Source: Candidatus Brocadiaceae bacterium (GTDB lineage Bacteria > Planctomycetota > Brocadiia > Brocadiales > Brocadiaceae). From it: 32,000 nucleotides of DNA. Positions 2-16,863 of the stretch are shown piece after piece. A program made the position numbers and the translations under genes. Location: contig JALDQZ010000012.1 of NCBI GenBank assembly GCA_031316145.1, positions 1 to 32,000 on the forward strand, written 5' to 3'. Numbering within the stretch: position 1 is the first letter of the stretch; every line of letters starts with the position of its first letter. Below the pieces are notes generated by a model. The model did no database searches and was not told the DNA's origin. It saw nothing but the letters and a program-made list of their open reading frames with translations.

Positions 2-1099
2 CCCTGTGGGATAATTTCTATAGATAGCAATAATACAGTGAATACCTTTAACAAAAGTTCTGCAAAAATGTTAAAAATTTCTCCCCAGGACATATTGGGA
101 AAGGATGTAAAATACATTGGTTCGGTTTTTGCCAATATTCTCCTGAGAACCTTAAAAGACAAAAAAATCTACGAGATGAGCCAGGTCGAAGACCGAAGTA
201 CACGTTCCACGTATTCGATTAGCACCTCTTTGCTGGTAAATAATGGCAAAGAACTCGGTTCGATCATGGTGTTTTCGGATTTAAGCGGGATGAAAAAATT
301 GGAATCACGGATAAAGGTTCTTGAAAAACAGGCATTTTATAAAATGCTTGGAAAAAATATGGCTCATTACATGGAGAATCATCTTGTTGCGGTTAAAACA
401 TTTATGGATTTATTTCCTCACAAATTGGAAACACTTTATGACGCAAAAGAATTTATCGGAAAATTTTTTCCGGTAGCGCAAGAAGAGTTGAGTAATCTTG
501 ATCTATTGATAAAAAAATTAATAACGTTGGGTGAAAACGAAAACCTCATGAAAAAGAGCTTGGATCTAAAAGTCCCATTGGATCGAGCGCTTGATGTTTG
601 CAAGGGGGAAATAAAGCGCCTTAAAATTCATATAAAGAAACACTACACGGAAGAGCCTGCAATTATCTTTGGAAATTATGAGAAATTAGAGGAGGTATTC
701 TCTACGATCATTATCAATGCGATAGAGGCTATGCAGGAGAGCGGAACGCTGACAGTCAAGCTTTCGCGTGTTCTTCTGGATGGCAAAAAAATGAAGGAGG
801 CGCTCCCGTTTCTCAATGATGAGGAGCGCTCGGTTGCATACTGCGGCCAAAAGGCGCAAAAGGAGTCGCCCAGGGATTTTTTAGAGGTTTTGATCCAGGA
901 TGATGGATGCGGGTTGCCTCCTGGAGAAGTAGAAAATATCTTTCTCCCTTTTTATACGACAAAGGAGCACAACATAGGATTAGGACTTTCTATCGCTCAG
1001 CGATTAGTCGAAGAATTTAATGGATTTATTTCGGTGTCAGCTATAGAGAAGAAGGGGAGTAGTTTTTATGTTTTGCTGCCCAGTTTGAATGTGTCATGA
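2..1099 (+). CDS. PAS-type sensor histidine kinase (5' end cut by window edge)
   Basis: The frame is open from the window edge, with no stop between nt 2 and the GTG at 38, so the 353-aa track ORF is the 3' part of a longer gene. PAS-like N-terminal part. H-box MAHYMENHL, N-box IIINAIEAM, G1 DDGCGL, G2 IGLGLSI. The stop overlaps the next start (ATGA at 1096-1099). Confidence 0.8.
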   Translation, partial: PCGIISIDSNNTVNTFNKSSAKMLKISPQDILGKDVKYIGSVFANILLRTLKDKKIYEMSQVEDRSTRSTYSISTSLLVNNGKELGSIMVFSDLSGMKKLESRIKVLEKQAFYKMLGKNMAHYMENHLVAVKTFMDLFPHKLETLYDAKEFIGKFFPVAQEELSNLDLLIKKLITLGENENLMKKSLDLKVPLDRALDVCKGEIKRLKIHIKKHYTEEPAIIFGNYEKLEEVFSTIIINAIEAMQESGTLTVKLSRVLLDGKKMKEALPFLNDEERSVAYCGQKAQKESPRDFLEVLIQDDGCGLPPGEVENIFLPFYTTKEHNIGLGLSIAQRLVEEFNGFISVSAIEKKGSSFYVLLPSLNVS

Positions 1100-2472
1100 A
1101 AACCATATTAATCGTAGATGATGATCCCGTCATAGTTGAATCCCTCCGTTGCATACTGCAGGATCATTATAACATTATAGGCTCAAATAGCGGAAGGGAC
1201 GCCCTGGGTGTGTTGGAAAAGGAATTGGTTGATCTCATTGTATTAGATTTGAAAATGCCTGGGATGGATGGAATGGAATTGTTAAGAAGGTTGCAACCGA
1301 ATAGAGACGCTCTGGGCATACTGGTTTTGACTGCGGTAAGCGATGTTAAATGTGTCGTTGAGGCTATGAAGTTGGGCGCGCTGGATTATATTGTCAAACC
1401 TTTTGATATTGAGGAGATTAAGGTAGCGGTGCATAGGGCGTTACAGTTAAGAAATTTAACGAGGGAAGTCCATTATCTTCGATCGGAATGCCGTAGCTAT
1501 TCCATCGACAGGATAATTCATGGTCACAGCAAAGCGATGACAGATGTTATTTATACAATTTCTCGAGTCTCCAGAGTTAACTCAACAGTCCTCATCAAGG
1601 GGGAAAGTGGCACAGGAAAGGAACTGGTTGCTCGTTCGATTCATTTTGACAGCGACCGGAGGGAATCGCCCTTTGTTGTGGTGAGTTGCTCAAACCTGGC
1701 AGATAATTTGTTGGAAACAGAGCTTTTTGGCCATGAGAAAGGCGCTTTTGCCGGAGCATATGAAAGAAAGTCGGGTAAATTTGAAGTAGCCGAAAGCGGC
1801 ACTATTTTTTTGGATGAGATTAGCGAGATGAGTCTTTCTTTGCAGGCAAAATTATTGCGAGTATTACGGGAGAGAGAGTTTGCCCGCATAGGGGGGCGCT
1901 CAGTCATAAAGACGGATGCTCGTGTCATTGCTGCCACAAATAAGGATCTTGAGGAAAAAATTAAGAGAGGTCATTTTCGTGAGGATCTCTACTATAGCAT
2001 GAACGTTGTTCCTGTTTATCTTCCGCCTGTCAGGGAAAGACCTGAAGATATTCCCCCGTTGATAGAACACTTCTACAATATTTTTCGAAGGGAGTGTCAC
2101 GCGAAAAGTGAATTCATTTCACGTGAAGCGATGGAGATATTATTGGAATATCGCTGGCCGGGAAATGTGAGAGAAATAAAGAACGTAATGGAAAGGGCGA
2201 TTGTGCTTTTTGGCTCTGAACCGATACTGCTTCCGGAGCACCTCCCTGTAGAACTTGCCGGGATTTCCGCTGGCATGCAAAAAGTAAAACCGGGTAATAC
2301 TATACGCATATCATTGGAAGATGAAGTCGGAAGGATAGAGAAGCAGCTTATTGAGCAGGCCATGCAAAAGTCTGGCGGCGTGAAATCAAAAGCGGCAAAA
2401 CTCCTCGGGACGACCCGAAGTGTTATTCATTATAAGATGCAAAAGTATGATATTCCTGATGTTGGCAGGTAA
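1096..2472 (+). CDS. NtrC-family sigma-54-dependent response regulator (REC + AAA+ + Fis-type HTH)
   Basis: REC domain (VDDDP, VLDLKMPGMDG). Walker A GESGTGKE and Walker B GTIFLDEI. The sigma-54 contact loop is present as GAFAGA (nt 1741-1758). C-terminal HTH AAKLLGTTRSVIHYKMQKY. Confidence 0.92.
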   Translation: MKTILIVDDDPVIVESLRCILQDHYNIIGSNSGRDALGVLEKELVDLIVLDLKMPGMDGMELLRRLQPNRDALGILVLTAVSDVKCVVEAMKLGALDYIVKPFDIEEIKVAVHRALQLRNLTREVHYLRSECRSYSIDRIIHGHSKAMTDVIYTISRVSRVNSTVLIKGESGTGKELVARSIHFDSDRRESPFVVVSCSNLADNLLETELFGHEKGAFAGAYERKSGKFEVAESGTIFLDEISEMSLSLQAKLLRVLREREFARIGGRSVIKTDARVIAATNKDLEEKIKRGHFREDLYYSMNVVPVYLPPVRERPEDIPPLIEHFYNIFRRECHAKSEFISREAMEILLEYRWPGNVREIKNVMERAIVLFGSEPILLPEHLPVELAGISAGMQKVKPGNTIRISLEDEVGRIEKQLIEQAMQKSGGVKSKAAKLLGTTRSVIHYKMQKYDIPDVGR

Positions 2473-2523: not shown

Positions 2524-3834
2524 TTAAAACTGGTAATTAAAGTTTATGGCCATTAGATAGTCAATAGAGTCGTATCTCCCATCGATAGATCCCTGTAACT
2601 CATCTCCTACAGAGTTAGTAATCCTTCTGTTTTCATACACGGCTATTCCGGAGGCAAAGTCTATCCATTTGTTCATTTTCCCCCCCCAGCGATATTCAAA
2701 CCCGGTAAACACTGCATGCCTGCTGCTCATGGGGATAGATGGCTCAAAGGTATCACTTGGTACAGGGGATTCATGAAATGCATAACCTCCTCGTAATTTT
2801 ATGGTTTCATTCAGCAGGTATTCTCCTCCAAGGGCAAATCCCAGAGTATTGTGCCAGTTTCGAACATCCTCATTGCCTCCATCGAGAATGGGGTTTGATG
2901 GTGCAAAATCGAATCTTAGCACATCAAACCTCGTCCAATTAGTCCACTGAACGTCTGCCTCTACACTCCATCGCTCCCGGTGTTTATATGCATAACCTAA
3001 AATAAGTATTTCAGGAAGCGTAAGGGTAGTTCTTGCTTTTGTAGAGAATGATTCTCCGCCAAATGCTTCTGCGGTTGCTCCGCTCAGATTGGAAAACTTT
3101 AGAGATCCTTTTGTGTCAATATCTGCTTTGCTTCGGAATGAAATACCAATAGTGTGTTGGGGTGTAATGTTGTAGAGTATCCCAATGTTGTACCCAACAC
3201 CATCGCCGTGAACATCATCAAGATCCTGAAATCCGTCCGGGGTTGTTGTGTCTTGAGGGGTGCCAGTTAAGGAAGCATTAAGAAGGCCTACGTTTACACG
3301 TTTTTCCACATCAGACTTGGCGTAGTAGTAATCAAGGCCTGCACCGATAGAAAGAAATGAGAATGGTTTAAAGGTAATGGTAGGGTTAACATTGAGAATA
3401 GCCAAATTAAAATCGGTCACTACGTATCTTGAAAACCCGTCTTCTTCCCAGTTGCCTCTCAAACCATAAGGTGCAGAAATACCAATTCCTGTGGCTAATT
3501 TATCCTCTATGAGCGGGCAGGCAAAAAAAAGATTTGGTATGGTGTTTATCCCCGTGCCCATATCCTCATGTATGCCGTTTCCATGGTACTCTACTTTGGG
3601 AATGACAAAGCTGGCGCCTGTGGAGATTTGCGGTCTTTTTAACTGAGTAAGTCCGGCAGGATTAAATATAATTGCAGATGCGTCATCTGCTCGGGCAACA
3701 AAGGCGTTTGCCTGTGCTAATCCTACGGCGCTGAAAGACGGACTATGGAATCCGGAGGCGATCTGTGCTGAGATATCCATTTCATGAACGAAGTACGATA
3801 CGAGGAAAACAAAAACTAGAAAGAGTTGTTTCAT
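2524..3834 (-). CDS. Outer-membrane hydrophobic-compound / long-chain fatty acid channel, OMPP1/FadL/TodX family
   Basis: N-terminal signal peptide. Family-typical N-terminal segment AVGLAQANAFVARADDASAIIFNPAGL. Alternating beta-strand pattern and a C-terminal aromatic end NFNYQF. Confidence 0.8.
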   Translation of the reverse strand: MKQLFLVFVFLVSYFVHEMDISAQIASGFHSPSFSAVGLAQANAFVARADDASAIIFNPAGLTQLKRPQISTGASFVIPKVEYHGNGIHEDMGTGINTIPNLFFACPLIEDKLATGIGISAPYGLRGNWEEDGFSRYVVTDFNLAILNVNPTITFKPFSFLSIGAGLDYYYAKSDVEKRVNVGLLNASLTGTPQDTTTPDGFQDLDDVHGDGVGYNIGILYNITPQHTIGISFRSKADIDTKGSLKFSNLSGATAEAFGGESFSTKARTTLTLPEILILGYAYKHRERWSVEADVQWTNWTRFDVLRFDFAPSNPILDGGNEDVRNWHNTLGFALGGEYLLNETIKLRGGYAFHESPVPSDTFEPSIPMSSRHAVFTGFEYRWGGKMNKWIDFASGIAVYENRRITNSVGDELQGSIDGRYDSIDYLMAINFNYQF

Positions 3835-4611: not shown

Positions 4612-5841
4612 ATGAAAAAGAAAATCGTGATAACCGGCATGGGTATGGTGAGTTCCCTTGGCATCGGTCTTGATGAAAACTGGGAACGGTATCTATCCGG
4701 GGTATCGGAGATTAAGGAATATGAAATAGAAGGTATGGATTTAGTTACCCATGCGGGAAAGGTTTCGGATGACAAACTCGGCCCGTATATTCCTGAAAAG
4801 AAAAAGGGTAAGATTGATCGTTTTACCTGCTTTGCCATGGTTGCCTCGAAAATGGCGCTTGAGGACGCAAAAATTGATGAAGGATTTGAGAGAGAAAAGA
4901 TAGGCGTTTTTATCGGTAGCGCCTTTAGTGGGTTGAATATCATAGAAAAACAGCTCAAGGTGCTCTATCGTGAAGGCCCAAGAAGAGTTCATCCCCTTTT
5001 AATGCAAAATAATATCACCAATGCCTCATCAGGTGAGGTCGCTATTGAGTTTACCCTGAAAGGTCCCAATATTGGATTTGCAAGCGGAGGATGTTCTGCT
5101 GGCTACAGCTTGATTCAGGCATGTAATACCCTGCAGCTCCATGATATTGATGCCATAGTTGTTGGCGGGACTGAAGCTCCGTTGCTGCCCTATGTGTTTG
5201 CTGAATTAAAATCGAATGGTTTGTATCAAACAAACGGTTATGACCAAGACAAAGTGAGTCGTCCCTTTGATAGCGCGCGAAAAGGTTTTGTTCTCAGTGA
5301 GGGGTCCGGCGTGGTCATTTTGGAGACACTAAGAAGCGCGGAGAAAAGGGGCGCGGAAATATATGGAGAACTTGTAGGGTGTGGGGCTTCTTATGGGAAG
5401 AATAATTACACAAATCAACAAAACCACGGTTTTTTATCCAAGGTGGCCTGCATACAACAAGCGTTGGAGTCCGCGGCCATTCAGCCATCACAGGTAGAGT
5501 ATATAAACGCGAGCGGCATATCAGGGATAGAGGAAGACAGAGAAGAATCGGAGGTAATGCAAACGGTATTTGGAAGAGATGTCCAGAACATACCGGTAAG
5601 TTCGACGAAGGGCACTTTTGGTTACTCAATTGGCGCATCGGGTGCAATTGATGCGATCTTTTCATTATTGTCGTTAAAAAAACAAACATTGCCACAGACT
5701 CAGAATCTTGAGCATATTGATCCGTCATGTGGAACCATTCCTATTCTGAAAGAATCAATGGAAAAGCCGGTAAACATCATACTTTCAAATAACTTTGATT
5801 ATGCCGGCAATAATGTTTCGCTGGTATTTCGGCGTATTTAA
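4612..5841 (+). CDS. Beta-ketoacyl synthase-like protein (FabF fold) lacking both catalytic histidines (Cys/Ser/Tyr)
   Basis: Thiolase-fold KS motifs are present. Cys161 is kept in SGGCSAG (TGT 5092-5094). NASGISG replaces NAHGTST (Ser, AGC 5512-5514). SSTKGTFGYSIGASG replaces SSTKSMTGHLLGAAG (Tyr, TAC 5623-5625). The C-terminal FDYAGNN replaces FGFGGTN. Confidence 0.85.
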   Translation: MKKKIVITGMGMVSSLGIGLDENWERYLSGVSEIKEYEIEGMDLVTHAGKVSDDKLGPYIPEKKKGKIDRFTCFAMVASKMALEDAKIDEGFEREKIGVFIGSAFSGLNIIEKQLKVLYREGPRRVHPLLMQNNITNASSGEVAIEFTLKGPNIGFASGGCSAGYSLIQACNTLQLHDIDAIVVGGTEAPLLPYVFAELKSNGLYQTNGYDQDKVSRPFDSARKGFVLSEGSGVVILETLRSAEKRGAEIYGELVGCGASYGKNNYTNQQNHGFLSKVACIQQALESAAIQPSQVEYINASGISGIEEDREESEVMQTVFGRDVQNIPVSSTKGTFGYSIGASGAIDAIFSLLSLKKQTLPQTQNLEHIDPSCGTIPILKESMEKPVNIILSNNFDYAGNNVSLVFRRI

Positions 5842-5892
5842 TTGCTACATTTTTCGGCACAAAGGCAAAAAGGCGGAAGTCGCAAAGCACAA

Positions 5893-7137
5893 ATGAACAA
5901 ACTTACTAAAGAAAATAAGGTCGTTGTAACGGGGTTAGGGATCATTACTCCGATAGGGATTGGGGTTGATTCATTCTGGGATGCTGTCATTGCCGGAAAA
6001 TCCGGGATTTCATTGATCTCGCGGTTTGATATGGAAAATTATCCTACAAAGATTGCCGGAGAAATAAGGGATTTTTATCCTGAAAACTATATGTCTGAGG
6101 AACTGAAGAATTTTTTATGCAGAAGTTCTCAACTTGGAGTGGCAGCGGCTCAAATGGCATTGGATGATGCACGGTTAAATCTTTCCAATGTAAGGAATAG
6201 TAGTATTGGGATAACCATTGGATTGGGAGCTGAAACATTGTCCTACTACGATGAAAAAACGGCAATTGAGGAAAATAATTATACTTTGCGTTCAAATCCT
6301 CCCATAGAAAACAGGCATTTGACAAATATCATTTCCGATATTTTTCATCTTTCTGGTCAAAATGTTATTGTTGCAACGGCGTGTTCCAGTGGAAATCAGG
6401 CGATTGGTATTGCTCGAGACATGATTCAATCAGGTCAGGCAGACATCGTTCTGGCTGGCGGAGTTGAGGCGCCGATTTTTCCCCTGTATTTTGCGTCATT
6501 TTGCTCCTTGAGAATCATGTCGAAAAGAAACGATCAGCCTGAAAAGGCAAGCAGGCCGTTTGATAAGGAAAGGGATGGGTTTGTAATGGGTGAGGGCGCC
6601 GGGATATTGGTCATTGAGAGCGCTGAAAATGCGCACGAAAGGGGGGCGCCTATCTATGCTGAAATAGCGGGTTACGGCGCTACGAGTGACGCCTTTCACA
6701 TGACCATGCCTTCGAGGGATAGGAAAGAAATATGCAAGGCAATGCGTTCGGCAATACAGGATGCCGGTCTGGATATGAACGGCATTGACTATATCAATGC
6801 GCACGGGACATCAACACCGGCAAATGACAGTGGTGAAACGATGGCAATAAAAACCGTTTTTGGTGACAGGGCTTATGACATACCGGTAAGTTCAACGAAA
6901 TCAATGACAGGTCATTTAATTGGAGCTGCTGGCGCTGTAGAACTTATAACATGCATATTAGCAATGAAAAATTCTGTAATTCCGCCTACCATTAATTTAG
7001 AGCATCCAAGCCCTGATTGTGATCTGGACTATGTGGCTAATGAGGCGAGGGAAAAAGAAATTCGAACGGCTCTTTCGAATTCCTTTGGTTTTGGCGGAAA
7101 TAATTCGACCATTGTAGTAAAAAAAGTAATTCAATGA
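5893..7137 (+). CDS. fabF: Beta-ketoacyl-ACP synthase II (FabF-type), canonical Cys/His/His
   Basis: ATACSSG (Cys164, 6382-6384), NAHGTSTP (His304, 6802-6804), SSTKSMTGHLIGAAG (His341, 6913-6915) and NSFGFGGNN. I prefer the ATG at 5893 (MNKLTKENKVVVTGLG) to the TTG at 5842 used in the ORF track. Confidence 0.88.
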   Translation: MNKLTKENKVVVTGLGIITPIGIGVDSFWDAVIAGKSGISLISRFDMENYPTKIAGEIRDFYPENYMSEELKNFLCRSSQLGVAAAQMALDDARLNLSNVRNSSIGITIGLGAETLSYYDEKTAIEENNYTLRSNPPIENRHLTNIISDIFHLSGQNVIVATACSSGNQAIGIARDMIQSGQADIVLAGGVEAPIFPLYFASFCSLRIMSKRNDQPEKASRPFDKERDGFVMGEGAGILVIESAENAHERGAPIYAEIAGYGATSDAFHMTMPSRDRKEICKAMRSAIQDAGLDMNGIDYINAHGTSTPANDSGETMAIKTVFGDRAYDIPVSSTKSMTGHLIGAAGAVELITCILAMKNSVIPPTINLEHPSPDCDLDYVANEAREKEIRTALSNSFGFGGNNSTIVVKKVIQ

Positions 7138-7143
7138 TTAGGA

Positions 7144-7263
7144 ATTTTGAAACATGTTTAGTGTGCGCAAGCACATATTTCAAAATGGCGTGAAGCGACT
7201 ACATGAGTGTCGTTGTAGCCAATTTGTAAAAGTAGCTTCTGCCTGTGCTCGACGGACAGGCAG
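7144..7263 (+). other. Two stem-loops in the KS2-ACP spacer
   Basis: First structure: attttgaaa (7144-7152) pairs with tttcaaaat (7178-7186), enclosing an inner tgtgc-GCAA-gcaca hairpin (7162-7175). Second structure: ctgcctgt (7239-7246) pairs with acaggcag (7256-7263) around a 9-nt loop. Neither is followed by a U tract. Confidence 0.4.
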
Positions 7264-7310
7264 GATGCGCTTAACTAGAAAGGTAAAAATTTTTATAGGG
7301 AGAGAAAAAT

Positions 7311-7577
7311 ATGGATAATGTGACGGATAATGATATTAAGGAAAGGCTAAAAAAAATACTGGCAAAGGAACTGAAGATGGAGCCTGAGGATATTTCCGAT
7401 GATGCGCACATTACTGATGATATCGGAGTTGAATCTGCGGAAATGATTAATCTCTTATATGATATAGAAAGTGAGTTTAACATAGAAGTCTCTAATGAAG
7501 AGGCAAGTCAGAACTTAGTCATATGCAAAATGACAAATTTGATAAAAGAAAAAATGGAAATGAAGTCTGTAAAATAA
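7311..7577 (+). CDS. Acyl carrier protein, divergent (GVESAE instead of GxDSL)
   Basis: An 88-aa acidic protein. DDIGVESAEMINLLYDIESEF aligns to AcpP [20 protein letters not shown], with the putative phosphopantetheine Ser42 at 7434-7436. Good RBS (gggagag). Confidence 0.8.
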   Translation: MDNVTDNDIKERLKKILAKELKMEPEDISDDAHITDDIGVESAEMINLLYDIESEFNIEVSNEEASQNLVICKMTNLIKEKMEMKSVK

Positions 7578-7713: not shown

Positions 7714-7782
7714 TTTCAATTTTCTTGGCGGTCTCTGTGGTTAATTTTTTGATAATGACTTTTGTTTTTTAAGGGGCACAAA

Positions 7783-9567
7783 ATGATTTGTTCACGGGGC
7801 ATGGACATACTGCTTTGGAATTCTTTTATGGGCAAGGCCTATTCTGTCAGTGACTGTTTTAAAGAAAATGGCATTGGGTTGCTGGTCAGGGCATGTAAAG
7901 ACGCAGGTTTTTCCATGACGGTTGAAGACCCTGCAAGGATTGATTTTTATTCGTCATTTACAAAAAATGAACTTGAACCGGAGCTTTCAAGGCTCTCAGC
8001 GCATGTGTTTGGCAAGAAAAATGGTGAAGATAGCGCGTCATTACGCAAGGAGTGGGATTCTCTTCAAGAGAATCTCTCTTGTGCCATCAAAGGAAAAATG
8101 GAGGAATATCTCAATAGTCTTGCAAAAAAAGTGCGTGATGAACAGGTAAAAGTGCTGGGGATTAAGACCTGGCTGGGAGATAGATTTACGTACTCCGAGG
8201 AGCTCACCCGAAAGGTAAACCAACTGAGCCCGAATACCATCGTCATTGCCGGCGGTCCACAGGTCAATCAATTCAAAATCCATGCGCTTGAAGAAAGCCC
8301 TTTTGACTTCTGCATAGATGTTGAGGGGGAAACAACATTGACCAAAATTGTGGCTATGGTAAAAGAAATGTATGGGAGGGGTTGTAAAAAGGTAGAAGTA
8401 ATCAACAGGATAACTGAGCTTGCAAAGACCGGTGAACTGCAAAACCTTATTTACCGGGACGCTGATAATACCATAAGAGAATCAACGATCAGACGATTGC
8501 CCTTAAACAAAAAAACTTTTCCCCTCTATGAAAAAGAAGATGGAAAGGCAGATATCGCGGTAATTAATGAATCTTCGGGCTGCTATTATGGAAAGTGTGG
8601 CTTTTGTTCCCATCCAAACATTACCGGGAAATATCAAACCAGGGATGTGGACATTACCCTTCAGGAGATAAAAGAGAACATTCAAAAATATAGTATCGGA
8701 CTCTTCCGGTTTGCGGGATCTGTTACCCCAGCTTCTCTGGGCAGGAAGATTGCCAATGCAATAGTAAAAGAAGGATTGCATATTGAGTATTCCATGTTTG
8801 TCAGGGCTGAAAATAGAGCAAAGGCCCGAATTACTGAACTGATCAATACGTACGAGGAAATGATTCGTTCCGGACTTCGGGCCGTTTTCATGGGTGTTGA
8901 GGCTGTGGACAAAAAGCTCCTTTCAGAGAGCATGCAGAAAGGAAGTTCCATTGCAGACATGTATTATACCATCAAGGCCCTGAAACAGGCATCCTATAAT
9001 CAGGGAATGCCTGTTGATGTAGGAGTAAGTTTTATTTATCCGTGCCCGATTCCTTCAAATACTGGAACAACTCATGAAAAGGTGTTAGAAAAAAATTTGT
9101 GTTTCCTGCGCTCATTAAAAATCGAGAATTTTATGCCGGATTCCGTGCTTATCACCCCGGGTGTGCCTCTTCCCCTGACAGCATGGCAATTAAAGCCAAA
9201 ACAGTTCGGTTTTGATCTGCCTGAAGATTATGTTCAAAAAATTATACGGTATGAGTATGAACTCACAAAGGACCCAAGTGTATGGCCAGATCTGGATATC
9301 ACTTCAAACGGAATCAGGTTTAAGGATATGTTGAAGATGTCAGGGCAGATGGAAAAGAAGGTCAGGAAAATGGGGTATACGGTAAATGTGTCTGACGAAC
9401 ATTGTCTGGCTGCAAGAAGTTCCGGTTTTGTCGGGCAGAAAGGATTAGAAGAATTTAAGTTAAAGAGTGACATGGCATTACTTACCACCGATTATCGCTT
9501 CCTGAGAGAGGTGTATAACAAAATAAATTCATACAGCAGGGCGCTGGCTGAGAAAAATAATTCATAG
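7783..9567 (+). CDS. Radical SAM enzyme with N-terminal cobalamin-binding-like domain (class B-like) and non-canonical CX4CX2C cluster motif
   Basis: The N-terminal Rossmann-like segment IVIAGGPQVNQF...DFCIDVEGETTLTKIV resembles B12-binding radical SAM domains. Cluster motif GCYYGKCGFCSH (Cys codons at 8581, 8596, 8605). I saw no SPASM-type C-terminal Cys pattern. The ATG at 7783 has an aagggg RBS, whereas the track ORF starts at TTG 7762. Confidence 0.8.
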   Translation: MICSRGMDILLWNSFMGKAYSVSDCFKENGIGLLVRACKDAGFSMTVEDPARIDFYSSFTKNELEPELSRLSAHVFGKKNGEDSASLRKEWDSLQENLSCAIKGKMEEYLNSLAKKVRDEQVKVLGIKTWLGDRFTYSEELTRKVNQLSPNTIVIAGGPQVNQFKIHALEESPFDFCIDVEGETTLTKIVAMVKEMYGRGCKKVEVINRITELAKTGELQNLIYRDADNTIRESTIRRLPLNKKTFPLYEKEDGKADIAVINESSGCYYGKCGFCSHPNITGKYQTRDVDITLQEIKENIQKYSIGLFRFAGSVTPASLGRKIANAIVKEGLHIEYSMFVRAENRAKARITELINTYEEMIRSGLRAVFMGVEAVDKKLLSESMQKGSSIADMYYTIKALKQASYNQGMPVDVGVSFIYPCPIPSNTGTTHEKVLEKNLCFLRSLKIENFMPDSVLITPGVPLPLTAWQLKPKQFGFDLPEDYVQKIIRYEYELTKDPSVWPDLDITSNGIRFKDMLKMSGQMEKKVRKMGYTVNVSDEHCLAARSSGFVGQKGLEEFKLKSDMALLTTDYRFLREVYNKINSYSRALAEKNNS

Positions 9568-9588
9568 TTTAAAAAATGCATATCTAAA

Positions 9589-9615
9589 AAGGCACAAAGA
9601 CAGCGGGAACAAAGG
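9589..9615. repeat. Left imperfect inverted repeat flanking the four-helix-bundle cassette
   Basis: aaggcaca (9589-9596) and ggaacaaagg (9606-9615) recur as reverse complements at 9966-9973/9989-9996 and 9977-9986. Confidence 0.55.
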
Positions 9616-9623
9616 AGCAAAGG

Positions 9624-9961
9624 ATGATAAGGAGTTATAGGGATCTAAAAATACGGTAGTATATTCGATAACAAAGTTATTGCCAAAAGAGGAGTTATAT
9701 GGATTGGTATCCCAAGTCAGGAAAAGTGCCGTTTCTATGCCAAGTAATATTGCAGAGGGTTACGGAAGAAACTCTACCAATGAGTATATTCGATTTCTCC
9801 AAATATCGAGTGGCTCTTTGTATGAATTACAAACTCAACTTTTGATTTGTTTAAAATTAAGATACTTATCAAAAGAAACATTTGAAAGCACGTATGAGAA
9901 GAGCAGAGAAATAGAAAGAATATTTAGCCGCTTAATAAAAAAATTGGATAAAAACAATTAA
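9624..9961 (+). pseudogene. Four-helix-bundle protein of the 23S rRNA intervening-sequence (S23-like, PF05635-type) family, disrupted near the 5' end
   Basis: The family core is AVSMPSNIAEGYGRNSTNEYIRFLQISSGSLYELQTQL. The ATG at 9624 gives the family-typical MIRSYRDLKI and then a stop at 9657. Helix 1 resumes in another frame (VVYSITKLLPKEELYGL), which implies a small deletion plus a frameshift. Only a TTG-initiated 93-aa remnant (9680-9961) is open. Confidence 0.65.
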
Positions 9962-9963
9962 AC

Positions 9964-9996
9964 TCTGTGCCTTCTGCCTTTGTTCCTCTGTGCCTT
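9964..9996. repeat. Right imperfect inverted repeat flanking the cassette (contains ctgtgcctt twice)
   Basis: tgtgcctt occurs at 9966-9973 and 9989-9996, and cctttgttcc at 9977-9986. These are reverse complements of the motifs at 9589-9615. Confidence 0.55.
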
Positions 9997-10074
9997 AATA
10001 GCTGCGATATTTCAAATTTTTCAACAAAGTTTATTGTTACTTTTTGAACTCCTTTCTTTATACAGATACATCTC

Positions 10075-11331
10075 ATGATGAAAAGACGAGTGGTGATTAC
10101 CGGTCTGGGGATATTGGCCCCGAATGGAATTGGAAAAGAGGCTTACTGGGACGCAATCATCAATGGTCGATCAGGAATAAACAGAATTTCCTCGTTTGAT
10201 CCTTCTTCTTTCACGACTCAGATTGCTGGTGAGGTGGAAAATTTTGATCCAAAAGACTATGTTGATTCAAGGATGGTGGCTCGATGTGGGAGATTTACCC
10301 ATTTTGGTATTGCAGCCTCAAGAATGGCAACTGCTGATGCCGGTATAGACTTCAGCAAGGAAAACAAGGAGAGATGTGGTGTCTGTTTTGGCACCACATT
10401 AGGCCCGAATAATGATGTGTATGAAACACAGCACAGGAAATTTATAAGTTCTGGTCCTCTGTCTGTGGGACGTCTTACACCAGTTGAGATTACACCGCAT
10501 GTGACGACGGGCTATATCTGTTCAGATCTTCATATTGCCGGGCCGAATTCTACGCTTACTTCAGGATGTTCAACCGGGCTCGATGTGATGGGTTGGGGGC
10601 ACAAAATGATACAACAGGGGAAGATCGATGTTGCGGTTATCGGGTGCGCAGATACGCCAATCTTTCCGTTTATTTTGTCTGCTTTATGTAACCTGGGAAT
10701 TCTTTCCAGGAGTAATAAGGAGCCAGAAAAGGCCTCAAGGCCATATGACAAAAGACGTGATGGCATGGTGCTCAGTGAAGGTGGTGTTTCAATTGTGCTG
10801 GAGGAATTACATCATGCCCTGGATAGGGGCGCGGATATCTATGCCGAGGTATTGTCCTTTGCCTCTACCTGCGATGCTCAGGATATCGTGAATGCTGATA
10901 CCGGCGGGCAGGCTCTGATTTCCGCAATGGAAGAGGTTTTGGTGAGCGGCAGAGTTGGAAAAGAGGAGATAGATTATATTTGTGCCCACGGAAATAGCAT
11001 GCCTTCCTATGATATTGCAGAAACAAATGCCTTTAAGGCCTTCTTTGGTGAGCGTTCGTACAGAATTCCTGTAAGTTCCATTAAATCCATGACTGGTCAA
11101 TCATTTGCTGCCGGAGGCGGGTTTCAGGTGGTGGCAACGAGCCTTAGTCTTAAAAATGGGTTTGTTCCTCCCACCATTAATCTGGACGAACCAGATCCTC
11201 TCTGTGACCTTGATTACGTACCCCATGAAGCCAGACGGTTTTCCATGGAAACCGCCCTGATAAATAGTCATAGTGTTGGAAATACCCATGCAGCTCTTGT
11301 GTTGCGAAGATTTTCTGGAGAAGGAAGGTAA
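10075..11331 (+). CDS. Beta-ketoacyl synthase paralogue with Cys/His/Gln triad
   Basis: TSGCSTG (Cys165, 10567-10569), CAHGNS (His305, 10987-10989), SSIKSMTGQSFAAGG (Gln342, CAA 11098-11100, at the second His position). The C-terminal NSHSVGNTH replaces NSFGFGGTN. Confidence 0.85.
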   Translation: MMKRRVVITGLGILAPNGIGKEAYWDAIINGRSGINRISSFDPSSFTTQIAGEVENFDPKDYVDSRMVARCGRFTHFGIAASRMATADAGIDFSKENKERCGVCFGTTLGPNNDVYETQHRKFISSGPLSVGRLTPVEITPHVTTGYICSDLHIAGPNSTLTSGCSTGLDVMGWGHKMIQQGKIDVAVIGCADTPIFPFILSALCNLGILSRSNKEPEKASRPYDKRRDGMVLSEGGVSIVLEELHHALDRGADIYAEVLSFASTCDAQDIVNADTGGQALISAMEEVLVSGRVGKEEIDYICAHGNSMPSYDIAETNAFKAFFGERSYRIPVSSIKSMTGQSFAAGGGFQVVATSLSLKNGFVPPTINLDEPDPLCDLDYVPHEARRFSMETALINSHSVGNTHAALVLRRFSGEGR

Positions 11332-13901
11332 TGACTATGTTCCAGGCAACCTACATTTTGATAAGTTTGTGTATTGGAGGCCTTGGGATATTTGTGTTCC
11401 TGAAAGATCCAAGAAACAGTATTAATAAAAGATTTTTTCTCTACACATTGGTGATAGCAGTATGGGTATTTTCTATTAATCTTACCCTTCTAGCAAAAGA
11501 TACAACGATAGCGACTTCTAGACTAAGAATTGTTTTTTCTGTAGCTTCTCTTATGGGACCAAGTTTTTTTTTCTTTTCATCGGTATTTCCGGACCGAAAA
11601 GAAAGAACTTTTCAAAGATATCTGTGTCTTTTGTTCTTTGCAGCAAGTATCATTTTCATATGTACTTCCCCCTCATTAGTGAAAAAATCGGCTTTTGAAG
11701 GCGATAAAATACGTGCTGAATATGGTTCCCTTTTCATCCTGTTTTGGATTCACCTTTTAAGCTGTATGGGATATTCTTTCTACATCCTTTACAAGAAAAT
11801 CCGTTGGGCTTACGGCGTTACGAGATTACAGATTCAATATGTATTTTTTGGAATAGTGTTATTTGTTTTATGTGCTTTTATTACAAATTTTCTCTTTCCA
11901 TTGTTTGGTTTGTGGCAGGCTGAACAGTATGTCCCACTGACAGCCATTCCCATTCCGATAATGATTGCGATTGCGATTGTAAAGTATCACCTCATGGATA
12001 TTACCGTGGTGCTGAGGAAGAGCACGATGTATGCTGTTCTGACGGTCGTCCTGAGTTTTATCTATATTTTTGTTTGGGTAATTGTGGGTAACCTGTTGAA
12101 GATACCAGAATATAAAGAAGCTGTTACTGCTGTTGTTTCCACATCGGTGATGGTCTTTACTTTTGTTTTAACCGGAGAATCAATCCAGTATTTTGTTGAA
12201 AAGACCTTGTTTCGGACCAAATACAGTAGCTCAAAGATCCTGAGTGATTCTACGGCAATACTTTCATCCATTCATGATTTGCCGGGACTTCTTCATTCTG
12301 CGATCCAATATTTATATGATTCTGTAGGTATGGAGAAGATAAGTGTATTTCTCCGGGATGAAACACACAGTCATTATACCCTGAGGGCTTCAATAAAATT
12401 TCCGATAGATGCAAAATCTATTATTCACTGCGATAACGCCATTGCTACCAGGCTTTCTCAAAATAAAACGGTTTTATCACTTGATCAGTTAAAACGTTTC
12501 CATCGAAGAAAATCCGATGTCTTGTTGATAGACGTTTTGGAGCAACTTGACGTTGATAGCTGTATACCATTGGTTCAGGGGAATGATCTCATCGGTTTCA
12601 TTTTTTTGGGGAAAAAGATAAATAAAAAGGTTTATACACTGGATGATATCCAGATGTTTATTGCATTTTCCGGTCAAATGGCCCTGGCTGTAAGGAATGC
12701 CCACCTGTACCTGGGATTGAAAGAATCCATGGTCTACAGGGACAACATCCTTGAGAGTTTAAGAAGTGGAGTTATTGTTATAGATTATAATGAAGAGGTT
12801 ACCCTGATAAACTATGAGGCAAAAAAAATAATCGGGAAGAAAAATATGCAATCAAGCAAAACGATACTTGCTGCTCTTGGGAAAGACACATACCGGTTGC
12901 TGAGATATACGCTGAAAAACGATACAGAATTCAAAAATGTTGAAACCACTATCAAGAAAGGTGATGAAATAAATCTCTACAGCGTGACGACAACACAATT
13001 GAAAACGGAAACCGGTGAAAAACTTGGGGCTTTAATGATTCTTACCGATTTGACAGAACTGAAAATGCTTCAGGCTGAAAAACAACATTCCGAAAGATTG
13101 GCGTATCTTGGCACCCTTGCCGCGAATATTGCCCATGAGATAAGGAATCCACTTGTTCCTATCAACACCTATTTCCAGCTTCTTCCCCAAAAGAAGGGAG
13201 ATGAAAAATTTCATACGGAATTTCGAACGTTAGCGCTCAATGAAATAGGCAGGATCAACAGAATCATTGAAGAGATGTTGGACCTGGCAAAACCTTCCAA
13301 TCCTATTTTACAACCGATAAATCCTCACCGTGTGATAATGGAAACCATAAAATTACTCAGAGATACTGTATCAGAGAAGGATATTGAAATAGTTACAGAA
13401 TTAAACGAAATAAACTGTCAGCTTTGTGCCGATGAAGATAAGGTGCGGCAGGTCATGGTCAACATTTTGCAAAACAGCATTGAAATCCTGCCAAAAAATG
13501 GGCATATTCAGGTAAGCACAATCTTGATAGATGGCCTTTCTTATTTTAAGAAAAAGGCGAAAAAACACCCTAGTAGCATTTTCTTTTCCTTTGTTCCCTC
13601 AGTGTTACATGACGAAAATAAACAGTTTTTTGTAATGAAGGTATCCGATAATGGCAAAGGTATTTCGGCAGAAAAGATGCAGTATATTTTTGAACCGTTT
13701 TTCACGGATAAAAATAAAGGAACAGGACTTGGATTGGCAGTGGTATACAGAATCGTAAAGGATCATGAAGGTTGTATTTATGTTGAAAGTCAGGAAGACA
13801 AGGGAACAGACTTTTATATTTGCTTTCCAATAAACCAGGTCAATGTGTACCTGTTTCCTGCCGATCAAGAAAAAACACTGGAAAGTTCTCACTCCTTATA
13901 A
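11331..13901 (+). CDS. Polytopic membrane sensor histidine kinase (about 8-9 TM N-domain, GAF, PAS, HisKA, HATPase)
   Basis: Hydrophobic N-terminal 290 aa. H-box ANIAHEIRNPL, N-box VNILQNSIE, G1 SDNGKGI, G2 GTGLGLAV. The start ATG overlaps the KS3 stop (TAATG at 11329-11333) and is preceded by ggagaaggaagg. Confidence 0.88.
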   Translation: MTMFQATYILISLCIGGLGIFVFLKDPRNSINKRFFLYTLVIAVWVFSINLTLLAKDTTIATSRLRIVFSVASLMGPSFFFFSSVFPDRKERTFQRYLCLLFFAASIIFICTSPSLVKKSAFEGDKIRAEYGSLFILFWIHLLSCMGYSFYILYKKIRWAYGVTRLQIQYVFFGIVLFVLCAFITNFLFPLFGLWQAEQYVPLTAIPIPIMIAIAIVKYHLMDITVVLRKSTMYAVLTVVLSFIYIFVWVIVGNLLKIPEYKEAVTAVVSTSVMVFTFVLTGESIQYFVEKTLFRTKYSSSKILSDSTAILSSIHDLPGLLHSAIQYLYDSVGMEKISVFLRDETHSHYTLRASIKFPIDAKSIIHCDNAIATRLSQNKTVLSLDQLKRFHRRKSDVLLIDVLEQLDVDSCIPLVQGNDLIGFIFLGKKINKKVYTLDDIQMFIAFSGQMALAVRNAHLYLGLKESMVYRDNILESLRSGVIVIDYNEEVTLINYEAKKIIGKKNMQSSKTILAALGKDTYRLLRYTLKNDTEFKNVETTIKKGDEINLYSVTTTQLKTETGEKLGALMILTDLTELKMLQAEKQHSERLAYLGTLAANIAHEIRNPLVPINTYFQLLPQKKGDEKFHTEFRTLALNEIGRINRIIEEMLDLAKPSNPILQPINPHRVIMETIKLLRDTVSEKDIEIVTELNEINCQLCADEDKVRQVMVNILQNSIEILPKNGHIQVSTILIDGLSYFKKKAKKHPSSIFFSFVPSVLHDENKQFFVMKVSDNGKGISAEKMQYIFEPFFTDKNKGTGLGLAVVYRIVKDHEGCIYVESQEDKGTDFYICFPINQVNVYLFPADQEKTLESSHSL

Positions 13902-14734: not shown

Positions 14735-15756
14735 TGATCTTCCAGTTGTTTTATGCGTTTTTCAAGCGATTTAATATGGTCTCTCATTTCGGGGAGTTTC
14801 TCTATGATTACATAACAACGCCGCATCCGCTGGATGGGGAGGGCCGGAGTTCCCAGATAGGTTGTATTGCTGGGGATGTCGTGGGCCACTCCAGAACGTC
14901 CGCCCACCACAACATTATCACCTATCGTGACATGTCCGATAATTCCGGCTCCGCCGGCAAGGGTAACATGCTTTCCTATCTTTGCGGTTCCTGCAATACC
15001 TACCTGTGAGACAATCAAAGAATTTTCACCTATTTCCACATTATGTGAAATAACAACCTGACTGTCAATCTTTGTGCCGCTCTTAATGATCGTTTTTCCC
15101 ATTGCGGCACGATTAATAGTTGTATTGGCGCCGATTTCCACATCGTCTTCTATTACGGCGATACCTACCTGTGGGATTTTGTAATAACGCTCTCCATCCG
15201 GGGCGTAGCCAAACCCACTGCTCCCAATGACCGTGTTGCTATGAATGTTTACTCGTTTACCAATTTTTGTATCGTCATAAATCACAACGTTTGGATAAAT
15301 AACCGTGTCATCGTCAATGGTACACTGGTTACCGACGAATGTGCCTGGACAAAGGACGACACGATTGCCAATTTGGGTATTTTCGCCGATGGTGACAAAC
15401 GCTTGGATAGAAATATCTTTGCCTAAGACGGCAGTCTTTGCGATGTGTGCAGAATCGTCAATGCCTGTCGCGTGTATGGGCTTTTCGTACATTAAAAGTT
15501 CCACGATCTGCGCAAAAGCAAGATAGGGATTGTTGCATACTAAAAGGTTTGCTTGCGCGTCTTTTAGTCTTGGGGAGACAATAATTGCGGAGGCCTTGGT
15601 ATCGTGAATTCTCTTTACATATTTTTCATTGGATATAAACGTTATAAATCCTGCCTGCGCTTCATTAATGCCCATGACACCGCGTATACGCGTGGCGGGA
15701 TCGCCCATAACTGAGCCGCCTACGTGGTCAGCGAGTTCCTGTAATGATTTTTCCAT
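14716..15756 (-). CDS. lpxD: UDP-3-O-acylglucosamine N-acyltransferase
   Basis: N-terminal LQELADHVGG...ITFISNEKY region followed by long hexapeptide (left-handed beta-helix) repeats and a C-terminal helical tail. Confidence 0.9.
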   Translation of the reverse strand: MEKSLQELADHVGGSVMGDPATRIRGVMGINEAQAGFITFISNEKYVKRIHDTKASAIIVSPRLKDAQANLLVCNNPYLAFAQIVELLMYEKPIHATGIDDSAHIAKTAVLGKDISIQAFVTIGENTQIGNRVVLCPGTFVGNQCTIDDDTVIYPNVVIYDDTKIGKRVNIHSNTVIGSSGFGYAPDGERYYKIPQVGIAVIEDDVEIGANTTINRAAMGKTIIKSGTKIDSQVVISHNVEIGENSLIVSQVGIAGTAKIGKHVTLAGGAGIIGHVTIGDNVVVGGRSGVAHDIPSNTTYLGTPALPIQRMRRCYVIIEKLPEMRDHIKSLEKRIKQLEDQWKSSD

Positions 15757-16684
15757 TATATGGAGCCTTTGTCACAAATCGTACGAGAATAAGGGTCGCG
15801 AGTAAAAGACACCAGCTGAGCATGCCGGTGACTATTTCGTTGTCGCCAAAAAACCAATGCGGTTTTTTATAAACATCGTCAAAAAAGAATTTATTTGACT
15901 TAAGGAGAAAAATCCAGCCGGCATGAAGCCCTATGGAACAATACAGGGATTGTGTTCTCAGAAAGGCATAGGATAGAACAATGCCAGCGCAGAATAGTCC
16001 GATAACGGAAGGTAAAATAGTGGTAAATTTCAGGATAATCGATGCAAATGAATGATACACAACCACAAAACCAACAAAAGGTTGTATGCCAGGAGCTACC
16101 GGTAATTTCGCACTGAAGAAGTGCAGGAAAGAATACATAAGGCTACTGATGCAAATTGCGGGCATTACTTTCATATCTCTCAACAGATTTTGAAAGATAA
16201 AGCCCCGAAAAAAAACTTCTTCAATGCATGCGACAAGGCCAGCGACCATCATTATTTCTAAAAGATGAAATAGTATGTTTCCAAAAGACTTAAGATCCGT
16301 TTCCAGTTTCTGTGTGCCACTAATGTATAAGGCGATTATACAGAAAATAAACATGCCCGTGCTCAAGAAAATGCCTGTTTTGAGCTGGTCTAGCCACCCT
16401 TTTATCGGTTTTATTCCAATAGCGGCAAGGGTGTCAACCACAAAGGACTTTCTTAAGAAAAAAATTAAAAAAAGAGCGGTAAGCAGCATAATCCGGCGCA
16501 TAACCCTCGCAAAATTATACTGTCCTTCTTCATAATGGAGTATATCAGCCAGAGAAGAGCTTGTGGATAGCAGTGAGTCAAGAACGGCCTTAATAAAAGG
16601 CGCAATAAGGCTGCTCAAAAACAAGACAAGAAAGAATAAAAGGAAGATTTTCTTGTAGTGTCTTGTCGTATTGAATGGGTTCAT
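15728..16684 (-). CDS. CPBP (CAAX/Abi) family intramembrane glutamic endopeptidase
   Basis: Polytopic membrane protein. Motifs IEEVFFRGFIF, YSFLHF and GLHAGW. I prefer the start at 16684 because a near-consensus promoter ends 7 nt upstream of it. The track ORF extends to 16837. Confidence 0.65.
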   Translation of the reverse strand: MNPFNTTRHYKKIFLLFFLVLFLSSLIAPFIKAVLDSLLSTSSSLADILHYEEGQYNFARVMRRIMLLTALFLIFFLRKSFVVDTLAAIGIKPIKGWLDQLKTGIFLSTGMFIFCIIALYISGTQKLETDLKSFGNILFHLLEIMMVAGLVACIEEVFFRGFIFQNLLRDMKVMPAICISSLMYSFLHFFSAKLPVAPGIQPFVGFVVVYHSFASIILKFTTILPSVIGLFCAGIVLSYAFLRTQSLYCSIGLHAGWIFLLKSNKFFFDDVYKKPHWFFGDNEIVTGMLSWCLLLATLILVRFVTKAPYNGKIITGTR

Positions 16685-16691
16685 GATGGAG

Positions 16692-16720
16692 ATAATAGTG
16701 CTGTTAAAAGAAGTTGTCAA
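16692..16720 (-). promoter_or_regulatory. Sigma-70-type promoter (TTGACA-17 bp-TATTAT) for the CPBP-lpxD-lpxI operon, possibly leaderless
   Basis: The minus strand reads TTGACA acttcttttaacagcac TATTAT ctccatc ATG. The -10 hexamer ends 7 nt before the ATG at 16684. Confidence 0.5.
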
Positions 16721-16863
16721 CTGAAAATCTGTTTTATAACAAGAACTAATGTTTACAAGAGATGCGTTACATAAGAGTAGAGAGAAAAGAAGGATTATTT
16801 TTGTTGGTTTCCTGTAAATAGGCCTGCTTTCTGCCATTGCGAACTACGGCATATTTATATTTG

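Follow-up and report, generated by a model that had tools for sequence, protein, structure and literature searches.

A FabF-fold ketosynthase with a Cys-His-Gln active site encoded together with a seven-transmembrane histidine kinase in anammox and other bacteria

What becomes of a FabF-type ketosynthase when the second of its two catalytic histidines has been replaced? The question is raised by KS3, the third ketosynthase gene in a 32,000-nucleotide stretch (the window) of contig JALDQZ010000012.1 from Candidatus Brocadiaceae bacterium (GCA_031316145.1). Condensing enzymes of the β-ketoacyl-acyl carrier protein synthase (KAS) I/II type are defined by a Cys-His-His triad, and KAS III and chalcone synthase (CHS) enzymes carry out decarboxylative condensation with a Cys-His-Asn triad. 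An initial annotation of the window read KS3 as having a Gln in the place of the second His and suggested a priming or otherwise specialised condensation step in place of routine elongation; the surrounding cluster also encodes an acyl carrier protein (ACP). Since the nearest KS3 homologues by name are from Brocadia, Jettenia and Kuenenia, the host is an anammox bacterium. Our analysis indicates that KS3 is a member of a FabF-fold ketosynthase family which has not been described before and acts as a unit with a polytopic seven-transmembrane (7TM) histidine kinase, and that KS3 most likely works in an undescribed lipid-linked signalling unit and not in routine or ladderane lipid synthesis. The two genes at the centre of the argument are as follows.

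10075-11331, plus strand: KS3, FabF-fold ketosynthase of the kinase-coupled clade, 418 amino acids (open reading frame and translation; Pfam PF00109 and PF02801)
11331-13901, plus strand: sensor kinase with the domains HisKA_7TM-GAF-PAS-HisKA-HATPase (Pfam), 856 amino acids, overlapping KS3

The Pfam matches of KS3 are ketoacyl-synt and Ketoacyl-synt_C, with no FabH-type (ACP_syn_III) domain. An AlphaFold2 model computed from 22 clade sequences (mean pLDDT 91.8, pTM 0.93) was compared with the PDB by using Foldseek, and because the best matches were the FabF structures 4ls5 and 4ls6 (TM-score 0.96-0.98, root mean square deviation about 1.2 Å), the scaffold of KS3 is that of FabF. The identity to Bacillus subtilis FabF in the Foldseek alignment is 39%, and the actinorhodin ketosynthase is also a good match in both sequence and fold (phmmer and Foldseek). 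KS3 scores 395.2 bits against the fabF equivalog TIGR03150, below the cut-off of 493.75, whereas KS2 from the same window reaches 514 bits; none of the NCBIfam families claims KS3.

The alignment of KS3 with B. subtilis FabF (PDB 4ls5) obtained with phmmer runs from end to end and places the active-site motifs opposite one another (KS3/FabF: tsgCstg/vtaCatg, caHgns/naHgts, ksmtgQsf/ksmtgHll and nsHSVGNTha/nsLGFGGHna). To judge which of the differences are general, we counted residues in 117 homologues, namely those of normal length among the 119 database proteins closest to KS3 (identities down to 46%), and in a comparison set of 64 Cys-His-His representatives that includes housekeeping FabFs. 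The positions of interest are listed below with the counts in the 117 clade homologues.

10498-10500, plus strand: codon of His142, clade-specific, in the divergent region 110-150; His 114/117
10567-10569, plus strand: codon of Cys165, aligned to the FabF Cys, the acyl-accepting nucleophile; Cys 117/117
10987-10989, plus strand: codon of His305, the first catalytic His, with HGNS instead of HGTST; His 117/117
11083-11085, plus strand: codon of Lys337, the conserved active-site Lys; Lys 117/117
11098-11100, plus strand: codon (CAA) of Gln342, in the position of the second catalytic His; Gln 103/117, His 14/117
11125-11127, plus strand: codon of Gln351, in the place of the second-shell Glu of FabF/FabB (FabB Glu342); Gln 117/117
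11263-11289, plus strand: gate loop N397-S-H-S-V-G-N-T-H405, replacing N-S-F-G-F-G-G-x-N (alignment and clade counts)

The active-site reading of the initial annotation is thus borne out: Cys165 and His305 are conserved, the alignment and the codon both give Gln at position 342, and the loop HSVGNT stands where FabF has FGFGG. The clade, however, differs from the Cys-His-His representatives at more than the triad: at least eight further active-site positions have changed together, several of which the initial annotation missed. The second-shell Glu (FabB numbering from the table in Rattray et al. 2009), which is Glu in 48 of the 64 representatives, is Gln not only throughout the clade but also in 87/87 of the sister set with Cys-His-Asn described below. 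Both Thr residues of HGTST are replaced: position 307 is Asn in 99/117 clade homologues and Thr in 46/64 representatives, and position 309 is Ile, Met or Leu in the clade and Thr in 57/64 representatives. At position 401 the gate Phe (54/64 representatives) has given way to Val, Leu or Met in the clade, Val being the residue in KS3. His142, His399 and His405 are three near-invariant, clade-specific His residues around the active site in the place of the FabF residues Asn, Phe and Asn (position 142: Asn in 40/64 representatives; position 399, codon 11269-11271: His in 111/117 and Phe in 47/64; position 405, codon 11287-11289: His in 99/117 and Asn in 56/64); they might be a new base, a displaced catalytic His or a metal site. 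Asn403 of the HSVGNT loop, on the other hand, is found only in KS3 of this genome, and the clade has Gly at this position (106/117). The region 110-150 was also described correctly as being far from the FabF pattern, since it has only the anchor residues GP..V....P....P...TG in common with FabF; it is the least confident stretch of the model as well (pLDDT 74-84). The residue changes of the clade are those of a re-tuned enzyme and reflect neither chance nor decay.

The triad motif of the 119 homologues is nearly always KSMxGQ, and Gln was found at the second-His position in none of the 64 Cys-His-His representatives and in none of the 46 rows of the housekeeping FabF clade, all of which are Cys-His-His. 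The Gln variant is therefore not common in housekeeping FabFs, which the initial annotation had named as a finding that would refute its reading, and Gln342 is a family trait, not an accident. Among the nearest 150 proteins obtained by an exhaustive phmmer search of 1.84 billion cluster representatives, the triad was Cys-His-His in 100, Cys-His-Gln in 16 and Cys-His-Asn in 10. Maximum-likelihood trees placed KS3 in a clade that includes every kinase-adjacent Cys-His-Gln member, supported by a Shimodaira-Hasegawa-like approximate likelihood ratio test (SH-aLRT) value of 98 in the quick tree and by ultrafast bootstrap (UFBoot)/SH-aLRT values of 94/98 in the careful tree of 34 rows. The sister of this clade is a Cys-His-Asn clade, and the triad Cys-His-Asn occurs in 87 homologues. 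The superclade of both, apart from the housekeeping FabFs, has support values of 97 (quick) and 99/91 (careful). The housekeeping FabF clade holds four ketosynthases of this genome, namely those of contig C9, KS2, C10b and C12a. The earlier proposal that a carboxamide on a FabF scaffold mimics the KAS III-type triad fits these data, in particular the Cys-His-Asn sister. Within the KS3 clade, His occupies position 342 at four or more scattered tips; Gln and His have therefore been interchanged repeatedly, which fits a common role as hydrogen-bond donor.

Some proteins near the clade have unusual architectures. Two clade members, P0087 (595 amino acids) and P0103, are without the active-site Cys, and P0087 has a TIR_2 match between its ketosynthase domains. 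Several top-scoring representatives (P0121, P0122, P0126, P0127 and P0130; about 810-870 amino acids) are tandem double ketosynthases, the second domain of which has a degenerate triad (e.g. Thr/Asp/His or Arg/Ser/Asp), resembling a ketosynthase fused with a partner like a chain length factor (CLF). Two Omnitrophota matches (G511 and G543) were rejected as clade members as they are ordinary Cys-His-His ketosynthases beside an ACP and a FabF. A contig search with the clade alignment matched generic FabF peptides (80 ordinary FabF loci, about 40% identity), and these loci were not used for the analysis of gene context.

Outside the active site, a constant feature of the family is the gene that follows it. 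In the window, the stop codon of KS3 and the start codon of the kinase have one base in common (TAATG at 11329-11333). A ketosynthase of the family followed by a homologous HisKA_7TM kinase was found at 30/30 evaluable loci from five or more phyla, comprising 14 anammox loci, the distant Brocadiales genome G025, three loci from Methylomirabilota, two from Desulfobacterota, eight from metagenomes or metagenome-assembled genomes (MAGs) and two of the Cys-His-Asn type; related genomes are not independent observations in this and the other locus and genome counts. In Brocadiales there is a further constant partner, an upstream gene for a B12-binding radical S-adenosylmethionine (SAM) enzyme, and the order radical SAM, KS3, kinase was seen in 13/13 other anammox-family genomes (tblastn, 20-kb regions). 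In G025, there are a second B12 radical SAM gene and an inserted transposase between the ketosynthase and the kinase; the insert (L025:6405-7295), a PD-(D/E)XK family transposase with small open reading frames, follows the second radical SAM gene, ahead of the kinase, and splits the otherwise compact cassette. The identities of the ketosynthases and of the kinases to those of the window co-vary (Spearman 0.79, 21 loci).

Outside the anammox bacteria (a Tectimicrobiota MAG, Methylomirabilota, Desulfobacterota and metagenome contigs), the homologues are 45-51% identical, and each is immediately followed by a full-length homologous 7TM kinase, usually with further kinases and hybrid regulators after it; no ACP, reductase or dehydratase was found in the minimal cassettes of ketosynthase and kinases or regulators at these loci. 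The fullest version of the cassette is seen at the Cys-His-Asn loci of the sister clade (Ratteibacteria and Omnitrophota MAGs), where rpoN, a regulator-kinase and FadL genes lie divergently on one side, and genes for a B12 radical SAM enzyme, the ketosynthase, the HisKA_7TM kinase, a regulator-kinase, a sigma54 regulator and an HD-domain regulator lie on the other.

A search from the kinase side led to ketosynthase-kinase pairs as well. One kinase (L136, 30% identical) lies behind a radical SAM gene and a Cys-His-Gln ketosynthase, and another (L135, 24% identical) lies behind a PilZ-fused ketosynthase with Cys/Tyr/Tyr in the triad positions. The latter gene (L135:4255-5982, metagenome contig) encodes PilZ and FabF-like parts and is directly upstream of genes for a HisKA_7TM kinase, a sigma54 regulator and an HD-domain regulator; it represents a second type of kinase-coupled ketosynthase, one that does not condense and has a link to cyclic di-GMP (c-di-GMP). 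Many of the nearest ketosynthases in the representative library also have N-terminal PilZ, PocR, PocR-GGDEF or receiver domains (P0133, P0138, P0145, P0148, P0156, P0159, P0165 and others, most of them Cys-His-His), and these fall in other FabF-like clades than KS3; the receiver fusions and one PilZ fusion cluster near relatives of KS2 of the window. The coupling or fusion of the FabF-like fold to signal transduction is therefore a recurrent theme.

The distribution among genomes also bears on what the unit does. The genome sets used here are samples, and absence refers to the genomes searched. KS3, the 7TM-GAF part of the kinase and the radical SAM enzyme were found in the same 12/31 Brocadiales genomes and were jointly missing from the remaining 19 genomes, among them several with 99% completeness; therefore, gain and loss have affected the three genes together, as one accessory unit. 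By comparison, amxFabFmut, used as a marker of ladderane Cluster I, had a match of at least 58% identity in 30/31 Brocadiales genomes, and the remaining genome had a 36% match only. Because only 12/31 genomes carry the unit while this marker is near-universal, the module cannot be a core ladderane function. The clade was found in none of about 290 Planctomycetota genomes outside the order, in 3/151 Methylomirabilota and in 2/201 Desulfobacterota, and this sparse scatter fits lateral spread.

The genome itself (3.9 Mb, 100% complete by marker genes; the window is on contig C4) encodes eight ketosynthases, three of them in the window (KS1, Cys/Ser/Tyr; KS2, canonical Cys-His-His; KS3, Cys/His/Gln). 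There are no fab genes near KS3, and contig C9 carries the housekeeping FabF, with Cys-His-His and FGFGG, which supports the earlier view that KS3 does not serve routine elongation. A pair of the amxFabF2/amxFabFmut type, consisting of a Val/Asn/Glu member and its Cys-His-His mate, is at C12:43003-45548, and another pair, of a Phe/Gly/Glu partner and a Cys-His-His protein, is at C10:244153-246730. The Phe/Gly/Glu partner resembles Kuste2805 in the table of Rattray et al. 2009.

Against this background, KS3 can be compared with the known groups of the superfamily. With FabF/KAS II, it has the fold, the Cys, the first His, the Lys and the length in common, but its TIGR03150 score is too low, and it has Gln instead of both the second His and the second-shell Glu, neither of the HGTST Thr residues, no Phe in a GFGG gate, three additional His residues and a divergent region 110-150. 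KAS III (FabH) and CHS resemble KS3 in the carboxamide at the third triad position, a likeness reinforced by the Cys-His-Asn sister clade; they are, however, another branch of the thiolase superfamily, and KS3 has PF00109 and PF02801 only and Gln, not Asn, as the third triad residue, so that the resemblance is one of convergent chemistry on a KAS II scaffold. In type II polyketide synthases (PKS), the KS-alpha and CLF proteins are likewise FabF-like with altered active sites, but the CLF has lost the Cys, whereas KS3 keeps it and changes the second His; moreover, no cyclase, ketoreductase or other PKS genes accompany KS3, which is the single ketosynthase gene in most cassettes.

The closest comparison within anammox bacteria is with the amxFabF2/amxFabFmut heterodimer, whose subunits are also divergent FabF paralogues linked to B12 radical SAM genes. 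In ladderane Cluster I, one subunit of this pair has an intact Cys-His-His triad and the other is without all three residues (bioRxiv 10.64898/2026.05.19.726425). Taking orthology to the KustE3605/3606-type proteins, encoded side by side and together with amxACP and amxFabZ, as the mark of Cluster I, we found that KS3 falls in a different clade and that the true pair of this genome is the one on contig C12. The pair is near-universal in the Brocadiales searched, whereas KS3 is in 12/31, has its own triad and is kinase-coupled. We define a kinase-coupled Cys-His-(Gln/Asn) group by its active site, in which Cys, His and Lys are retained, a carboxamide stands for the second His and Gln for the second-shell Glu, by a location directly upstream of a HisKA_7TM kinase and by placement in the supported clade; KS3 has the residues, the adjacent kinase and the position in the tree.

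What KS3 makes, if anything, is a matter for weighing. Because the kinase is constantly co-encoded, radical SAM and FadL genes are frequent, and the minimal cassettes otherwise hold signalling proteins only, we favour the reading that KS3 is an active, specialised condensing enzyme which produces, or begins the synthesis of, a lipid-like ligand of the partner kinase, with a probability of roughly 0.4. Under this reading, an acyl group would be loaded on Cys165, and Gln342, held by Lys337, would replace the second His as hydrogen-bond donor to the carbonyl of the malonyl or enolate group, the part played by Asn in KAS III; a decarboxylative Claisen condensation would follow, in a pocket that is less charged and more open. 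In the work of von Wettstein-Knowles and colleagues (2006) on FabB mutants and structures, the second His is said to be an obligate hydrogen-bond donor held by Lys. If Gln342 can take over this part, KS3 has probably remained a condensing enzyme, though one whose pocket has changed. The β-ketoacyl product, tailored by a B12 radical SAM enzyme in those cassettes that have one, would be, or lead to, a hydrophobic ligand. FadL could serve as the outer-membrane conduit, and the ligand might be sensed within the membrane by the 7TM domain of the co-translated kinase, with a phosphorelay to sigma54-type or other regulators as the output. In this genome, KS1-KS2, which resemble a ketosynthase/CLF pair, and the dedicated ACP added upstream would probably supply a special acyl primer.

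Several points weigh against the ligand reading. No thioesterase or other release enzyme is conserved in the cassette, which leaves the release of a free signal from the thioester unexplained, and several cassettes have no radical SAM gene within 8 kb. The kinase of L135 is preceded by a Cys/Tyr/Tyr PilZ-ketosynthase incapable of decarboxylation; therefore, kinase coupling does not always need condensation. The argument for Gln as donor leans on the established chemistry of KAS III and on the reported FabB mutants, and gene order alone cannot separate a signal synthase from a regulated target.

The last point gives room for the converse relationship, in which the 7TM kinase responds to a cue from the membrane or the environment and KS3, with the B12 radical SAM enzyme, remodels acyl chains (e.g. 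by special elongation or branching) as the adaptive output of an autoregulated operon. The intact catalytic Cys, His and Lys, the linkage to a radical SAM enzyme of the lipid type and, in some anammox genomes, to KS1-KS2-ACP, the FadL and lipid A genes nearby, and the accessory, patchy occurrence that adaptive lipid traits often have would all suit it. We nevertheless consider it somewhat unlikely, as the minimal cassettes consist of one ketosynthase followed by three or four kinases or regulators without another lipid enzyme, the translational overlap with the kinase is kept across phyla, relatives are fused to signalling domains and a non-condensing Cys/Tyr/Tyr ketosynthase precedes a homologous kinase. 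The same Cys/Tyr/Tyr protein, which retains only the Cys, speaks more for a sensor: KS3 would bind acyl-ACP or acyl-CoA, or be acylated by it on Cys165, would turn over little or not at all, and would report the lipid status to the cytoplasmic GAF/PAS domains of the kinase. The strict adjacency of the two genes and their overlap would suit such a protein, the lost Phe gate and the uncharged second shell could slow catalysis, and P0087 and P0103 have dispensed even with the Cys. Although these two proteins count in favour of a sensor, His305, Lys337 and the donor at position 342 are conserved over 46-100% identity, which would be needless in a pure binder, and the alternation of Gln, Asn and His at position 342 suggests selection on chemistry; we regard the sensor as distinctly unlikely.

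The suggestion of the initial annotation that KS3 takes a priming or otherwise special step corresponds to a further reading, in which KS3 is a priming or special condensing enzyme of a lipid pathway made up of KS1, KS2, ACP and the radical SAM enzyme, possibly related to ladderanes, and the kinase is a mere neighbour. The host is an anammox bacterium, the genes are collinear in the window and in G007, G015 and G242, and the radical SAM enzyme has a weak match to the 'ladder' family TIGR04072 (54 bits, cut-off 360). This part of the earlier proposal does not stand well, however, as KS1-KS2-ACP accompany the module at 4/14 anammox loci, are missing from the other 10 and are found at none of the loci outside anammox, and as phyla that are not known to produce ladderanes have this ketosynthase-kinase pair too. 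The absence of the module from 19/31 Brocadiales, some of them 99% complete, despite the near-universal amxFabFmut marker, and the separate amxFabF2/amxFabFmut pair on contig C12 tell against it as well, and we find it very improbable. We also considered the module as the maker of mid-chain methyl fatty acids (10-methylhexadecanoic acid, of anammox bacteria and Methylomirabilis) and rejected this, because only 3/151 Methylomirabilota and 12/31 Brocadiales have the module and no supporting paper was found.

The other genes of the neighbourhood in the window are as follows.

1096-2472, plus strand: sigma54-dependent response regulator (Pfam)
2524-3834, minus strand: FadL/TodX-type outer-membrane channel (PF03349)
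4612-7577, plus strand: KS1 (Cys/Ser/Tyr), KS2 (Cys/His/His) and ACP (7311-7577), an optional add-on, present by the module only in G000 (this genome), G007, G015 and G242
7762-9567, plus strand: B12-binding radical SAM enzyme, upstream partner of KS3 in Brocadiales (Pfam; no NCBIfam cut-off reached)
9588-9997, plus strand: cassette for a four-helix-bundle protein (23S rRNA intervening sequence protein; PF05635 on the open reading frame 9680-9961) between the radical SAM gene and KS3

The insert at 9588-9997 has inverted-repeat flanks and is not present in relatives; it brings the distance from the radical SAM gene to KS3 to 507 bp, compared with about 40 bp in the anammox relatives, and may disturb their co-transcription. 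An orthologue of the sigma54 regulator is directly upstream of the module in G005, G015, G139, G194, G242 and G287, but it is found in some anammox genera only and was rejected as an obligate member of the module. The search for sigma54 promoters (TGGCAC-N5-TTGCW, at most two mismatches) gave 19 matches against 14.4 expected, none of them convincing in the intergenic regions. FadL is close to the module at most anammox loci and divergent beside it in L122, L133 and L134. A CPBP/Rce1-like intramembrane protease is encoded a few kb downstream of the cassette both in the window (15728-16837, minus strand) and in the Tectimicrobiota locus (L030:16143-16781), which may be a coincidence.

The pairing of a KS3-type ketosynthase with a 7TM kinase was found in no curated family and in no paper. 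Searches of the literature for a Cys-His-Gln ketosynthase, for HisKA_7TM, for a PilZ-ketoacyl synthase and for FabF with a kinase, an autoinducer or radical SAM returned nothing relevant. KS3 is not mentioned in the anammox FabF preprint (bioRxiv 10.64898/2026.05.19.726425) or in the amxFabZ paper, and it is not described in the 2026 review of radical SAM enzymes in lipid biosynthesis; the comparative study by Rattray et al. 2009 lists only three other deviant paralogues. The nearest described kinase system is PrsK/PrsR of the XrtA/PEP-CTERM systems, as the partner kinase has the same 7TM and GAF N-terminus and a sigma54 regulator is often nearby; however, the kinase scores 98 bits on TIGR02916 with a cut-off of 300, and no exosortase or PEP-CTERM genes were seen.

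The gene arrangement, in turn, is similar to that of PhcB/PhcS, CqsA/CqsS, LqsA/LqsS and RpfF/RpfC, in which the gene of a polytopic sensor kinase whose outer loops are very short has the gene of an enzyme for fatty-acyl thioesters directly beside it. This is an analogy and not homology: none of PhcB, CqsA, LqsA and RpfF is known to be a ketosynthase, and their kinases are of other families than the partner of KS3. KS3 is a variant enzyme within what may be a new kind of signalling module. Extending the ligand reading to a whole circuit is more tentative, and we would call it doubtful though conceivable: a FabF-fold Cys-His-(Gln/Asn) synthase, often with tailoring by a B12 radical SAM enzyme, would send a hydrophobic signal through FadL to the 7TM kinase and on to a multi-kinase, sigma54 and c-di-GMP-linked relay. 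Gene transfer would have spread this circuit to at least five phyla, with an enrichment in anammox bacteria, in which it could control behaviour that depends on density or aggregates.

The Cys-His-Gln clade and its Cys-His-Asn sister, both with a neutralised second shell, constitute a natural experiment on the role of the second His in KAS I/II enzymes, and the pairing with the kinase ties an enzyme of the fatty-acid type to two-component signalling. For the anammox bacteria, KS3 and its radical SAM partner can be removed from the short list of core ladderane genes, which aids the search for the ladderane pathway. The hosts of the module are environmental anaerobes that are hard to culture, including the anammox bacteria of wastewater treatment, and if KS3 does make the ligand of the kinase, ligand and kinase would amount to a bacterial lipid signal and receptor of a new class.

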